From Escherichia coli (GTDB lineage: Bacteria; Pseudomonadota; Gammaproteobacteria; Enterobacterales; Enterobacteriaceae), in assembly GCF_048403405.1 (NCBI RefSeq), contig NZ_CP183129.1: 64,000 nucleotides of DNA; one strand, 5' to 3'. Below are positions 26,977 to 32,375 of the stretch, piece by piece (position 1 is the stretch's first letter; the number at the start of each line of letters is the position of its first letter). A program made the position numbers and the translations under genes. The notes under the pieces were generated by a model, which did no database searches, was not told the DNA's origin, and worked only from the letters and a program-made list of their open reading frames with translations.

Positions 26977-27003
26977 AGAGGATGCACTCGCATCCTCTTT
27001 CCG
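26977..27003 (+). terminator. Probable terminator after rnk
   Basis: AGAGGATGCACTCGCATCCTCT hairpin followed by TTTCC. Confidence 0.6.
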
Positions 27004-27298
27004 CTCAAATATCAACCAGATTTATCATTTTGCTCTTAAGCGCAGCATTCTAATCTGAACTGGTTATTCATCTGCGGAACCTCATATGAGCGAAGCTCTC
27101 GGTATCACTGCATTTTATATATTCATAGCAGCAATTATTGTTGCTGCAGTGCTATACCTTGAACAACGCTGGTAGCGCCTGGTTTTATTTATTTTCCAGC
27201 TCAATAGCAAATTCAGATCAAATCAGCCTCGCAAATCATAGATTCATAACCAATAATGTGCTGTTATGTATACATGCAAAAACAAGGAGAGAATGCTT

Positions 27299-27727
27299 AT
27301 GTACAAAACAATCATCATGCCAGTGGATGTTTTCGAAATGGAATTGAGCGACAAAGCGGTTCGCCACGCTGAATTCCTCGCCCAGGATGACGGAGTTATT
27401 CATCTACTTCACGTACTACCGGGGTCAGCCAGCCTGAGCCTGCACCGTTTTGCCGCTGATGTGCGTCGTTTTGAAGAGCATCTGCAACATGAAGCAGAAG
27501 AACGTCTGCAAACGATGGTCAGCCACTTCACCATCGATCCTTCCCGCATTAAGCAACATGTCCGTTTTGGTAGCGTGCGGGATGAAGTCAATGAGTTGGC
27601 AGAAGAACTGGGGGCTGATGTTGTAGTTATCGGTTCTCGCAACCCATCGATTTCGACCCATCTGTTAGGTTCTAACGCCTCGAGCGTGATCCGCCACGCC
27701 AATCTGCCGGTGCTGGTTGTGCGTTAA
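27299..27727 (+). CDS. uspG: Universal stress protein G
   Basis: 142 aa from MYKTIIMPV...; AAGGAGAG RBS upstream; UspA fold. Confidence 0.9.
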
Positions 27728-27743
27728 TTGCCAGAATAAATAT

Positions 27744-27780
27744 CCCGCCCTGCCCGGAGCCATCCCGGCGGGGCTTTTTA
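27744..27780 (+). terminator. Probable terminator after uspG
   Basis: CCCGCC...GGCGGGG stem followed by CTTTTTA. Confidence 0.6.
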
Positions 27781-27786
27781 TTGCCA

Positions 27787-27816
27787 TAAAAAAGCCGCCA
27801 GGTTTGACCCCGGCGG
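27787..27816 (-). terminator. Rho-independent terminator after ahpF (minus strand)
   Basis: Reverse complement reads GCCGCCGGGGTCAAACCTGGCGGC then TTTTTT. Confidence 0.7.
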
Positions 27817-27847
27817 CTAAGCAATTGCAGGTGAATCTTACTTCTTC

Positions 27848-29413
27848 TTATGCTGTTTTGGTGCGAATCAGGTAGTCAAAAGCACTCAGAGAGGCTTTGG
27901 CACCTTCGCCAGTGGCGATGATGATCTGCTTGTACGGAACCGTTGTACAGTCACCCGCTGCGAACACGCCTTTCACGTTGGTTTCGCATTTCGCATCAAT
28001 GATAATCTCACCCATGCGGTTACGTTCGACTGCGCCTTCCAGCCAGTTGGTGTTCGGCAGCAGACCAATCTGGACGAAAATACCGGCCAGTTCGATGTTG
28101 TGAATATCGCCGCTGACACGATCGCGATATTCCAGACCAACGACTTTGCTGCCGTCGCCTTTCACTTCCGTGGTTTGCGCATTCAGAATAATTTCGACGT
28201 TTTTCAGGCTGCGCAGTTTGTCCTGCAGAACCTGGTCGGCTTTCATTTCTGGCGCAAATTCCAGCAGCGTTACGTGCTCAACGATACCCGCCAGGTCGAT
28301 TGCCGCTTCCACGCCGGAGTTACCGCCGCCGATAACCGCTACGCGTTTGCCTTTAAACAGCGGGCCGTCGCAGTGCGGGCAGTAGGTCACGCCTTTGGTG
28401 CGATACTGATCTTCGCCCGGAACGTTCATGTTGCGCCATTTTGCACCGGTCGCCACGATAATGCTGCGTGCTTTCAGTACCGCGCCAGAAGCTGTTTCAA
28501 TCTGATGCAGGCCGCCTTCAACCGCTGCCGGGATCAGTTTGCTGGCGCTCTGGCTGTCGATCACATCAACGTCGTATTCATCAACGTGAACTTTCAGCGC
28601 ACCTGCCAGTTTCTGGCCTTCGGTCTTCGGTACAGAAATGTAGTTTTCGATATCAACGGTATCGAGGATCTGACCACCAAAACGTTCGCCCATCAGACCG
28701 GTACGGATGCCTTTACGTGCGGAGTAAATTGCTGCCGCTGCGCCCGCCGGGCCGGAACCGACGATTAATACGTCATAAGCATCACGCTTGTTCAGCTCTT
28801 CTGCCGCACGTTTTTCCGCGCCAGTATCAATTTTGGCGACGATTTCAGTCAACGTCATGCGACCCTGACCAAACTCTTTCCCGTTTACGAACACTGCCGG
28901 AACGCCCATCACGTTGCGATCGGTGATTTCGTTCTGGAAGGTGCCGCCGTCAATTGCAGTGTGCTTGATGCGCGGGTTCAGTACGCTCATCAGGTTCAGC
29001 GCCTGCACCACATCCGGGCAGTTGTGGCAAGAGAGCGAGTAATAGGTTTCGAATTCAAAATCACCGTCAATATGGCGAATCTGCTCCAGCAGAGACTGCG
29101 CTTCTTTCGACGGATGACCACCTGTCCACAGCAACGCCAGTACCAGCGAGGTAAACTCGTGGCCCAGCGGGGAGCCTGCAAAACGTGGCCCCTGGTTGGA
29201 ACCTGGGTTGGTGATCAGGAAAGACGGCTTACGCACTGGCAAGCTGTTATCTTCTTTAAAGGTGACTTTGTCTGACAGTTCTGCGATTTCAGCCAACAGT
29301 TCCTTGATTTCTGCCGATTTAGCGCTGTCATCCAGCGTGGCAATTAACTCAACAGGCTTGGTCAATTTCTCAAGGTAAGCCTTGAGTTGAGTTTTCATAT
29401 TTGTGTCGAGCAT
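27848..29413 (-). CDS. ahpF: Alkyl hydroperoxide reductase subunit F
   Basis: 521 aa from MLDTNMK...; CxxC (CHNC and CPHC) and FAD/NAD-binding motifs. Confidence 0.95.
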
Positions 29414-29583
29414 GTTTATCTCCTGGGCTTTAAACATCATCATGCAAGCGGCCTCTGCGGCTACCTGGATGCAGCTTGCATCATGGTGCGGGGAAGAAAA
29501 TCGGGTGCCGTAGCACCCGAAGAATTAGGTGAATTTCCGAAGTATTTCGCGCCGGAGTTGGTAGCGCGAAAGACGAAGGAAAT

Positions 29584-30147
29584 TTAGATTTTACCAACCA
29601 GGTCCAGAGACGGAGCCAGAGTTGCTTCACCTTCTTTCCATTTAGCCGGGCAAACTTCACCTGGGTGAGAAGCTACGTACTGTGCTGCTTTGATTTTACG
29701 CAGCAGGTCAGACGCGTCACGGCCAATGCCTTCAGCGGTAACTTCGATTGCCTGGATGATACCCTGCGGGTCAACAACGAAGGTCGCACGGTCAGCCAGA
29801 CCTTCATCTTCACGCATGTTGTCGAAGTTACGGGTCAGGGCGCCAGTCGGGTCGCCGATCATCGCATATTTGATTTTAGCGATGGTTTCAGAGCTGCTGT
29901 GCCATGCTTTGTGGGTGAAGTGAGTATCGGTAGATACTGCGTATACGTCTACGCCCAGTTTCTGCAGTTCTTCGTAGTGGTCAGCAACGTCACCCAGTTC
30001 GGTCGGGCATACGAAAGTAAAGTCAGCCGGGTAGAAAAAGAAGACGCTCCAGCGGCCTTCGGTATCTTTTTCGGTGATTTCGATGAATTCGCCGTTTTTG
30101 AATGCCTGGTTTTTAAAAGGTTTAATTTTGGTGTTAATCAAGGACAT
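29584..30147 (-). CDS. ahpC: Alkyl hydroperoxide reductase subunit C (2-Cys peroxiredoxin)
   Basis: 187-aa ORF with FTFVCPTEL peroxidatic-Cys motif. Confidence 0.95.
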
Positions 30148-30518
30148 CTATACTTCCTCCGTGTTTTCGATGAGATGTAAGGTAACCAATTTTTGCCGAT
30201 TCGGCTAATGCGTTTCCATTATCAAATCGATAAGTTTTACCTTACAACCTTCGTAAGACAACTTTGTGAACTTTGCACCGCCAGCGGCGATAAAAAGTAA
30301 AATGGCCCCCTTTCCAGGTGACCGTGTAATCTGAACTACCCTTTGGTATCTTCAGCGCCTGCCTGCAGGCTGAGGTGTTGCCCTTACAAATGCAACAACG
30401 ACATGGATTACAACACCCTCATAAACAAAGGGCAATCACCTGATCTAAGCTCTTACCTATGACAGTGATAGGTTATGCCTTTTACCCGACTTTTGCACTG
30501 ACTGAAAAGGACAAATTA
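30148..30518. promoter_or_regulatory. Divergent ahpC / dsbG promoter region, expected to carry OxyR-dependent control
   Basis: 371-bp intergenic region between divergent genes; contains palindrome CCTATGACAGTGATAGG about 60 bp upstream of dsbG; exact OxyR site not resolved. Confidence 0.45.
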
Positions 30519-31265
30519 ATGTTAAAAAAGATACTTTTACTGGCTCTGCTTCCTGCAATCGCCTTCGCAGAGGAACTTCCTGATCCAGTAAAAGCGATTG
30601 AAAAACAGGGTATTACGATCATCAAAACATTCGATGCTCCCGGAGGAATGAAAGGTTATCTCGGAAAGTATCAGGATATGGGCGTCACCATCTACCTAAC
30701 TCCAGATGGTAAGCACGCTATCTCCGGTTACATGTACAACGAGAAAGGTGAAAACCTGAGTAACACACTTATCGAAAAAGAAATTTACGCACCAGCCGGA
30801 CGCGAAATGTGGCAACGGATGGAACAATCCCACTGGCTCCTCGACGGTAAAAAAGACGCGCCGGTCATTGTCTACGTCTTCGCCGATCCGTTCTGCCCAT
30901 ATTGTAAACAGTTCTGGCAGCAGGCTCGCCCGTGGGTTGATTCTGGCAAAGTGCAATTAAGAACATTGTTGGTTGGCGTTATCAAGCCAGAAAGCCCGGC
31001 GACAGCAGCGGCAATTCTTGCCTCCAAAGATCCCGCAAAAACCTGGCAAGAATATGAAGCCTCTGGTGGCAAGCTTAAGCTAAACGTGCCTGCAAACGTA
31101 AGTACAGAGCAAATGAAAGTGTTAAGCGACAACGAAAAACTCATGGACAATCTGGGGGCAAATGTCACACCAGCTATCTACTACATGAGTAAGGAAAATA
31201 CGCTGCAACAGGCCGTGGGGTTGCCCGATCAGAAAACGCTTAATATCATTATGGGGAATAAATAA
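30519..31265 (+). CDS. dsbG: Periplasmic thiol:disulfide interchange protein DsbG
   Basis: 248 aa from MLKKILLL...; signal peptide; CPYC active site. Confidence 0.9.
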
Positions 31266-31472
31266 AAGATAATTCATGGATGGTTGAAATATATCCCTGT
31301 TTTTCAACCATCCTAAAAAAGCATGAATTGCTCGCTCTGCCCTAAGTGGCTGTGCTATTTTAGAAAAACTTAACTCTGAGTTAAGCAAAAAAACATAATA
31401 CAAATAAATACAACAGCAACATTATTGAACAAATGAATGATTTATAGAAGAGATAATATAACGGAGTATGTT

Positions 31473-32375
31473 ATGGCGAATCTTTATGACCTAAAAAAAT
31501 TTGATCTGAATTTACTGGTCATATTTGAGTGCATTTATCAACACCTCAGCATTAGCAAAGCAGCAGAATCATTATATATAACGCCATCTGCCGTTAGTCA
31601 GTCGTTACAACGTTTACGTGCGCAATTTAATGACCCGTTATTCATTCGCTCAGGGAAAGGTATCGCGCCGACTACGACAGGGTTAAATCTGCATCATCAT
31701 CTTGAGAAAAATCTCAGAGGCATTGAACAAACGATCAATATTGTTAATAAGTCTGAGCTAAAGAAAAATTTTATTATCTACGGCCCTCAGCTTATTTCTT
31801 GTACTAATAACAACATGCTAATCCGCTGTCTTAGACAAGATACTTCAATCGATATAGAATGCCATGACATACTGCTTTCAGCTGAAAATGCCGAAGAACT
31901 GTTGGTTCAACGCAAAACTGACCTGGCAATTACACTACAACCAGTAATTAGCCGCTCTGTCATCTGCATGCCGTTACATACTATTCGCAATTCTCTTATA
32001 TGTAGCAATAAACATCCTCGTATTACCGATACCAGTAACTATGAACAAATTATCGCCGAAGAATTCACCTTGTTGATATCTAAATCAGCAGGGATTGACG
32101 AAATTCAAATGGACATAGATGAACGTTTTATGAACCGTAAAGTTTCATTTCGCAGTTCTTCTTTGTTGACGATAATTAATAGTATTTCTGTTACTGACTT
32201 ATTGGGCATTGTGCCCACCGAACTGTACGATTTACATCGTGATTTTTTGAAGTTACAAGAGATAAAACTGGAACGACCACTTCCTGCGGTTAAACTTTAT
32301 ATTTCCTATAACAAGGCTTCGTTGAACAACCTTGTCTTCTCACGATTCATAGATCGTTTAAATGATAGCTTCTGA
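31473..32375 (+). CDS. ybdO: LysR-family transcriptional regulator YbdO
   Basis: 300 aa from MANLYDLKKFDLNLL...; HTH N-terminus; AT-rich gene. Confidence 0.8.
   Translation: MANLYDLKKFDLNLLVIFECIYQHLSISKAAESLYITPSAVSQSLQRLRAQFNDPLFIRSGKGIAPTTTGLNLHHHLEKNLRGIEQTINIVNKSELKKNFIIYGPQLISCTNNNMLIRCLRQDTSIDIECHDILLSAENAEELLVQRKTDLAITLQPVISRSVICMPLHTIRNSLICSNKHPRITDTSNYEQIIAEEFTLLISKSAGIDEIQMDIDERFMNRKVSFRSSSLLTIINSISVTDLLGIVPTELYDLHRDFLKLQEIKLERPLPAVKLYISYNKASLNNLVFSRFIDRLNDSF

Follow-up and report, generated by a model that had tools for sequence, protein, structure and literature searches.

The spacer between rplL and rpoB of Escherichia coli combines a partial terminator with an RNase III site, and it separates a highly expressed upstream gene from less expressed downstream genes. 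At transcript ends stabilised by REP sequences, e.g. in malE-malF, a stable intergenic hairpin shields the upstream cistron from 3' exonucleases and so leads to differential expression within one operon. The products of ahpC and ahpF are likewise made from one operon under the control of OxyR, and AhpC is required in much larger amounts than the reductase AhpF.

For the spacer between ahpC and ahpF itself, Gordon, Cameron and Pfleger (2017, mBio, PMC5371410) reported a new RNase III site in E. coli K-12, listed as 'Intergenic (ahpC-ahpF) 639695', a coordinate that comes from a coverage comparison. In that study purified RNase III cleaved an in vitro transcript spanning the spacer, 5' RACE was also used, and the half-life of the ahpC mRNA was ~14 min in the wild type and ~6 min in an rnc mutant, the stability of ahpF being unchanged. 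The authors proposed that after cleavage the ahpC mRNA ends in a 3' hairpin which blocks exonucleases (PMC5371410); a terminator, an ERIC sequence or conservation across genera is not described there. The main text of a second study of RNase III targets (Altuvia et al., 2018) does not mention ahpC. In a Term-seq dataset two plus-strand 3' ends were listed at MG1655 positions 639668 and 639670 (Adams et al., 2021, eLife, PMC7815308, Supplementary file 1), classed without comment as 'orphan' because they lie >50 nt from the K-12 ahpC stop codon, and not read as an ahpC terminator. ERIC or IRU repeats (Sharples and Lloyd, 1990; Hulton et al., 1991; reviewed in PMC3184786) are the third described element to which the spacer can be compared; a literature search for ERIC together with ahpC found nothing relevant.

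We analysed a window of 64,000 nucleotides from an E. coli genome (NZ_CP183129.1), to which all coordinates below refer unless they are stated to be those of MG1655. According to the list of open reading frames and the RefSeq annotation of identical E. coli loci, ahpC (187 aa) occupies 29584..30147 on the minus strand, with its stop codon TAA at 29586-29584, and ahpF (521 aa, counted from the ATG at 29413, RefSeq start MLDTNMKT) occupies 27848..29413 on the same strand, which leaves a spacer of exactly 170 nt at 29414..29583. The ahpCF mRNA therefore corresponds to the minus strand; the motifs in a preliminary description of this DNA were quoted from the plus strand, which is immaterial for palindromes. 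Using a 401-nt query across the junction, a match of at least 95% identity was obtained in 5,422 of 5,426 complete E. coli genomes. For the comparison between genera, species-representative genomes were scanned for AhpF, which gave 80 loci and, together with the window, 81 sequences from some 20 genera, including Escherichia, Salmonella, Citrobacter, Klebsiella, Raoultella, Enterobacter, Kluyvera, Kosakonia, Leclercia, Lelliottia and Pluralibacter.

The preliminary description had called the spacer structured, and the fold of the entire 170-nt RNA agrees with this, with a free energy of -59.2 kcal/mol compared to -41.7 +/- 3.9 kcal/mol for 200 dinucleotide shuffles (z -4.5; 0/200 shuffles as good). 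The fold resolves into three separate hairpins, numbered HP1, HP2 and HP3 from 5' to 3' on the mRNA. These differ in origin: as argued below, HP1 represents a decayed ERIC repeat, HP2 a probably leaky terminator and HP3 an RNase III hairpin. HP2 and HP3 were found in all 80 other loci examined, all of which are from Enterobacteriaceae. The Shine-Dalgarno sequence of ahpF, AGGAG at 29420..29424 (minus strand), belongs to a GGAG/GGGA block that is conserved in the cross-genus alignment (A3); by sequence and fold it lies 9 nt 3' of the base of HP3, which does not sequester it.

Two further structures were observed at the borders of the operon. Directly past the ahpF stop codon, between ahpF and a convergent gene at 27266-27727 (plus strand), a strong terminator-like hairpin is present at 27793-27818 (minus strand; 10 pairs, 8 of them G-C, followed by TTTTTAT), which is probably the end of the operon and may act bidirectionally. 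Upstream of ahpC, in the gap between dsbG and ahpC, the enterobacterial small RNA STnc70 matched at 30292-30385 (minus strand; 44.1 bits against a gathering threshold of 40, E 9.6e-07), and the 3' end of this match is a few bases from a published 'orphan' Term-seq end (MG1655 638796, approximately window position 30296), 149 nt upstream of ahpC. It was the sole significant Rfam match in the region 27000-31500; in a permissive search of this region (E <= 10) the spacer was without any match.

Compared to the described systems, the ahpC-ahpF spacer resembles the rplL-rpoB spacer in placing a presumably leaky terminator and an RNase III hairpin between a highly expressed upstream gene and a less expressed downstream gene, although its sequence is unrelated and the operon is a different one. 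With malE-malF it shares a stable intergenic hairpin protecting the upstream cistron, and in several genera the part of the spacer next to ahpC holds REP-like units; unlike in malE-malF, the protective hairpin in the window is a locus-specific terminator and not a REP. We consider it probable that the spacer functions as a three-part intercistronic module, comprising an ERIC remnant, a leaky terminator and an RNase III hairpin, by which the ahpC message is made to exceed the ahpF message. The structures, their conservation, the covariation and the ERIC homology were determined in this analysis, and the 3' ends in the U-tract, the cleavage by RNase III in vitro and the rnc-dependent stability of ahpC are taken from the K-12 literature, in which all experiments refer to the 244-nt allele with a full ERIC and not to the 170-nt allele of the window.

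HP2 was recovered by the terminator scan, the fold and the covariation analysis at 29501..29520 (minus strand) as the stem-loop UCGGGUGC-UACG-GCACCCGA, i.e. 8 bp closed by a C(UNCG)G-type tetraloop, and it is followed by the U-tract UUUUCUU at 29494..29500. The GGGTGC-CGTA-GCACCC stem of the preliminary description is part of this perfect 8-bp stem (inverted repeat I5). Folded alone, HP2 has a free energy of -16.6 kcal/mol (z -5.85), six of its eight pairs are G-C, the loop has 4 nt, and it is the only match on the mRNA strand to the consensus terminator scan within the spacer. Among the 81 sequences compensatory double changes were seen at 6 of the 8 pairs (e.g. C-G in 43 and U-A in 26 sequences; C-G in 34, U-A in 25 and U-G in 19; G-C in 69 and A-U in 5), and 97.5% of the cells were paired. 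For HP2 and HP3 together 95.1% of the cells were paired, compared to 25-46% when the 3' partners were slid by 1-3 columns. When counted by alignment column, at least 5 T were present in the 8 nt past the HP2 stem in 77/81 sequences (mean 5.6; background T fraction 0.25). These T runs are mostly 3-4 long and interrupted, e.g. UUUCAUUC and UUUUAUUC, which suggests a partial rather than a tight terminator.

The published 3' ends at MG1655 639668 and 639670 were transferred to the window by way of the corresponding MG1655 locus, where they correspond to positions 29498 and 29496, the third U of the tract and a position two bases further on. The hairpin of K-12 differs from that of the window by one base in the loop (UGCG instead of UACG), its stem and U-tract are the same, and the flanking sequence printed in the table of PMC7815308 contains HP2; the 'orphan' ends thus belong to the same hairpin and U-tract as 29494-29520 of the window. 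The 3'-end mapping that had been proposed as a check of the preliminary description is already available for K-12, and it places the ends in the U-tract of the GGGUGC hairpin. The table of Rho-dependent termination in the same paper holds no coordinate in the range 6395xx-6397xx. With a GC-rich stem and short loop, a U-rich tract, in vivo 3' ends within this tract in K-12, and compensatory change in the stem, HP2 is probably an intrinsic (Rho-independent) terminator. A search of the literature for Northern blots of a monocistronic ahpC message returned nothing for enterobacteria.

HP3 extends over 29434..29489 (minus strand) and was defined by inverted repeat I1, the fold, the RNase III site of Gordon et al. 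(2017) and conservation. It contains the long palindrome of the preliminary description, whose arms CATCATGCAAGC (29438-29449) and GCTTGCATCATG (29475-29486) are present, with 25 nt separating them, and are complementary at 11 of 12 positions, the remaining position being a G.G mismatch on the mRNA; in the repeat search the arms extend to 21 nt with 81% complementarity. On the mRNA HP3 comprises about 16 pairs, which together with three 1x1 mismatches make up 19 stacked positions, and weak, variable apical pairs; folded alone its free energy is -23.0 kcal/mol (z -2.24; 4/200 shuffles as good). The published site at 639695 lies 58 nt upstream of the ahpF ATG, which is window position ~29471 in the 5' arm of HP3, just above a perfect 8-bp helix, and as HP3 of the window is base-for-base identical to that of the K-12-type allele, the ahpC-ahpF RNase III site of PMC5371410 and HP3 are the same element. 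The loci around it are different in that the window has a 170-nt spacer with a short ERIC and a UACG loop in HP2, and the K-12 strain of PMC5371410 has a 244-nt spacer with a full ERIC and a UGCG loop. With a largely uninterrupted RNA duplex of about two turns (~20 bp), HP3 has the form expected of an RNase III substrate, and cleavage in vitro together with an rnc-dependent signal in vivo is documented for the identical K-12 sequence.

A terminator role had been assigned to this palindrome in the preliminary description, which linked it to the stoichiometry of the operon. A 3'-end-forming hairpin of the terminator type is indeed present between ahpC and ahpF, but the role was pinned on the wrong hairpin: HP3 is without a U-tract, lies directly upstream of the ahpF ribosome-binding site, and coincides with the RNase III site. 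HP3 is an RNase III processing site and not a terminator. As a candidate dispersed repeat HP3 was rejected, since it occurs at a median of 1 place per E. coli genome.

HP3 formed in 81/81 sequences (dG -12 to -28, mean -21; 94% of the cells paired) with a hairpin length of 47-59 nt. Covariation was near nil, a double change being present at 1 of the 16 pairs among the 81 sequences, so that support for the folding of HP3 comes from conservation and experiment rather than from compensatory changes. The apical ~25 nt differ freely between the sequences, and since their stability does not exceed that of shuffles (mean z about 0.1), the apex of HP3 was treated as a variable loop, not as a conserved structure.

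The alternative that survives best is that no termination takes place in the spacer, and that RNase III cuts in HP3 and the 3'-to-5' trimming that follows stalls at HP2, which would then be a stabiliser. Term-seq is blind to the difference between termination and exonucleolytic trimming to a stable hairpin, so that some or all of the 3' ends at HP2 could stem from processing. The stabilisation of the ahpC mRNA by RNase III cleavage and the exonuclease-blocking 3' hairpin proposed by its discoverers (PMC5371410) are in line with this, as is the finding that the Term-seq 3' ends are at HP2 and none is at the RNase III site (PMC7815308), which fits rapid trimming. An exonuclease block, however, needs just a stable stem, yet the T-rich tract is kept in 77 of the 81 sequences; the ends fall on the third U and on the base two positions further on, both inside the U-tract, as termination predicts; and HP2 satisfies the consensus terminator scan. 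We therefore regard processing without termination as rather unlikely, and the 3' ends at HP2 would arise at least partly by true termination by an intrinsic terminator. That this terminator is leaky is suggested by its T runs, and the rnc mutant, in which the half-life of ahpC falls more than two-fold, indicates that read-through transcripts supply a sizeable part of the ahpC message, so that the strength of the terminator would be limited.

The two arms of HP3 evolve differently. The 3' arm GCUUGCAUGAUGA is essentially invariant, with UGCAUGAUGA present in 81/81 sequences and the three preceding bases conserved at 90% or more in alignment A3, whereas the 5' arm accepts uncompensated changes (AUGAUU, AUGACG, AUAAUG). 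The contrast between an invariant 3' arm on the one hand and a tolerant 5' arm and free apex on the other suggests that the 3' arm, which upon cleavage becomes the 5' end of the ahpF message, has a second function beyond that of a generic RNase III substrate, a suggestion that we make with considerable reserve. The 3' arm might bind a protein or a small RNA, or it might influence the translation of ahpF or 5'-end-dependent decay. If this were true, HP2 and HP3 would constitute a family-wide, uncatalogued leader element of ahpF, there being no matching Rfam family. In E. coli the 3' arm of HP3 contains AUGAUGAUG in the reading frame of ahpF, which gives rise to an open reading frame of 531 aa in the list (the additional part being 29414-29443, minus strand). 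Most other genera have one extra U at this place (AUGAUGAUGUUUUAAG), which leads to a stop after four codons, and the 531-aa reading frame therefore looks like an E. coli-specific accident and not a real start.

Conservation of the arms by sequence would also fit if the palindrome CATGATGCAAG...CTTGCATGATG acted at the level of DNA, as the site of a dimeric regulator or as part of an internal promoter of ahpF. The arms are held by sequence and not by covariation, the 3' arm GCTTGCATGATGA being essentially invariant (TGCATGATGA invariant in alignment A3), and the changes in the 5' arm are uncompensated. The spacing of the arms, in contrast, varies widely (hairpin of 47 to 59 nt), which is awkward for an operator with two half-sites and harmless for the loop of an RNA; a promoter scan of the gene strand detected no sigma-70-like site in the spacer; and it is the RNA that is cut there by purified RNase III. 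Considering the variable spacing and the lack of a promoter-like site within the spacer, we judge a DNA-level element to be very unlikely.

The preliminary description had also offered an attenuator, i.e. alternative hairpins that would switch termination ahead of ahpF according to a signal, e.g. peroxide stress or the translation of ahpC. Several weaker alternative pairings do exist in the spacer (inverted repeats I3, I4, I9 and I10), and the minimum-free-energy structure has a low frequency in the ensemble (0.012). A regulated switch or riboswitch would nevertheless require a partner for the terminator, and the sequence 5' of HP2 is unconserved and non-homologous between genera, where it is replaced by unrelated repeats or by nothing, so that a conserved anti-terminator is missing; the linker of 10-15 nt between HP2 and HP3 was unpaired in every fold. 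As, in addition, the spacer has no Rfam match at E <= 10 and holds no leader peptide, regulated attenuation is unsupported and we attach hardly any weight to it.

HP1 occupies 29530..29583 (minus strand) directly past the ahpC stop codon and was delimited by inverted repeat I2, the fold, the comparison of alleles and the alignment with dispersed ERIC copies. Folded alone it has a free energy of -18.3 kcal/mol (z -4.95); a GC-rich stem of 9 bp encloses a loop of 9 nt, and there are additional outer pairs. The CGCGC/GCGCG stem of the preliminary description was recovered as part of its 21-nt arms at 29532-29552 and 29564-29584 (I2), but instead of a dedicated regulatory stem it is what is left of an ERIC repeat. 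Relative to the window the K-12-type allele has an additional block of 74 nt, CGCTCACCCCGGTCACTTACTTGTGTAAGCTCCCGGGGATTCAC, in the loop of HP1, and the two ERIC-PCR primers (ERIC1R/ERIC2, sequences confirmed from the literature) agree with this block at 20/22 and 21/22 positions. When 143 nt of the K-12-type allele were used as the query, the median number of matching places was 9 for each E. coli genome, and dispersed ERIC copies (between rpsB and tsf, downstream of ybiT, downstream of gyrA, and between ardC and mobH) align to positions 5-121 of the K-12 spacer, a range that covers the stretches forming the arms of HP1 in the window. Since the ERIC core was without a match in the whole 64-kb window even when up to 3 mismatches were allowed, the link to ERIC was drawn through the other alleles and the other copies.

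From the 74-nt ERIC core in the HP1 loop of K-12 and from the alignment of the arms with dispersed copies, HP1 is identified by sequence homology as the terminal inverted arms of an ERIC whose core of ~74 nt was lost. Like ERIC/IRU repeats in general, whose ends are homologous to its arms, HP1 is intergenic and co-transcribed and is located directly past a stop codon, and it has the same site and orientation as the full ERICs of K-12-type E. coli and of about 40 other species. It differs from a full ERIC, an imperfect palindrome of ~127 bp, in keeping ~50 nt and in being without the conserved core that is the target of the primers; full length is reached only in the 244-nt allele, and HP1 is thus better termed a derivative than a full member. 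The ERIC copy between ardC and the gene of a MobH-family relaxase (NZ_OZ547209.1, positions 401-501 of the extracted locus) is situated inside an integrative or conjugative element, and among 43,771 matches to ERIC 32 were plasmid-borne.

Within E. coli the spacer is length-polymorphic with three main alleles of 244 nt (K-12 type), 170 nt (the window) and 128 nt (O157:H7). Among the 5,426 genomes approximately 2,540 have the short ERIC, 1,760 the full ERIC and 1,115, including O157:H7, none, counts that were derived indirectly from identity bands and missing matches, as counting by coverage was confounded by the joining of BLAST pieces across the indel. In a comparison of four E. coli loci the 128-nt allele was not a clean empty site, as it contains 14 unrelated bases, GTTCCGCAATCGCG, similar to the spacers without repeats in other genera. 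One E. coli DH5alpha assembly (NZ_CP045741.1, positions 560-600 of the extracted locus) has an AhpF that is annotated differently and a deletion of ~89 nt that begins in the 3' arm of HP2, takes in HP3 and ends within the first codons of ahpF; this could be a mutation of the laboratory strain or an assembly error.

Across the 80 loci of the cross-genus comparison the spacer ranges from 118 to 377 nt. Its ahpC-proximal part is variable: it is either empty or occupied by a full ERIC, an ERIC without its core or REP-like units. About 40 species have the full ERIC, without change of orientation, and core-deleted ERICs with other deletion boundaries are found in Escherichia, Kluyvera georgiana, Huaxiibacter and one further locus (L060). 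Enterobacter, K. pneumoniae and several Citrobacter have in this slot REP-like units, judged by the REP consensus. In Phytobacter diazotrophicus two tandem ERIC copies lie between ahpC and the terminator (spacer of 377 nt), and in another locus (L033; spacer of 290 nt) an ERIC precedes a REP-like unit. This site seems to be a recurrent target of repeats. The ahpF-proximal ~105 nt with HP2, HP3 and the ribosome-binding site are present in 81/81 sequences.

That all structures of the spacer are by-products of inserted repeats, with no role in the expression of ahpCF, is suggested by HP1 being a repeat remnant that ~1,115 E. coli genomes of the O157:H7 type dispense with and by the different repeats at this spacer in other genera, but for HP2 and HP3, which are single-copy, locus-specific, conserved in 81 sequences from some 20 genera and tied to experimentally mapped RNA ends, this reading is already refuted by their conservation, and we give it practically no credence.

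According to the three-part module, HP1 would probably be a passenger and at most a modifier of mRNA stability. HP2 would terminate a share of the transcripts after ahpC, which would give a monocistronic ahpC message with a protective hairpin of the C(UNCG)G-loop type at its 3' end, and the short interrupted U-tract would let the remaining transcripts read through into ahpF. In these read-through transcripts RNase III would cut HP3, with its quasi-continuous helix of ~20 bp, and so separate the cistrons; the ahpC half would be trimmed back to HP2 and thereby acquire a stability equal to that of the terminated species, and the ahpF half would begin in the 3' arm of HP3 and decay independently. 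The net result would be an ahpC message exceeding the ahpF message from a single OxyR-controlled promoter, and the ratio of the AhpC and AhpF proteins would presumably be affected likewise.

The ends at HP2 and the site in HP3 are already mapped in public K-12 data, and the element as such is ordinary and already documented. What is added here is modest and leaves the current understanding unchanged: an unexplained 'orphan' Term-seq end is linked to a terminator of ahpC that is conserved, this terminator is found to be retained together with the RNase III hairpin throughout the Enterobacteriaceae, and the ahpC-proximal part of the spacer is recognised as a changeable landing site for ERIC and REP repeats. 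The 128-, 170- and 244-nt alleles of E. coli represent a natural experiment on repeats altering expression. The spacer shows how leaky termination, and then cleavage by RNase III, may generate the difference between AhpC and AhpF once transcription has been initiated.
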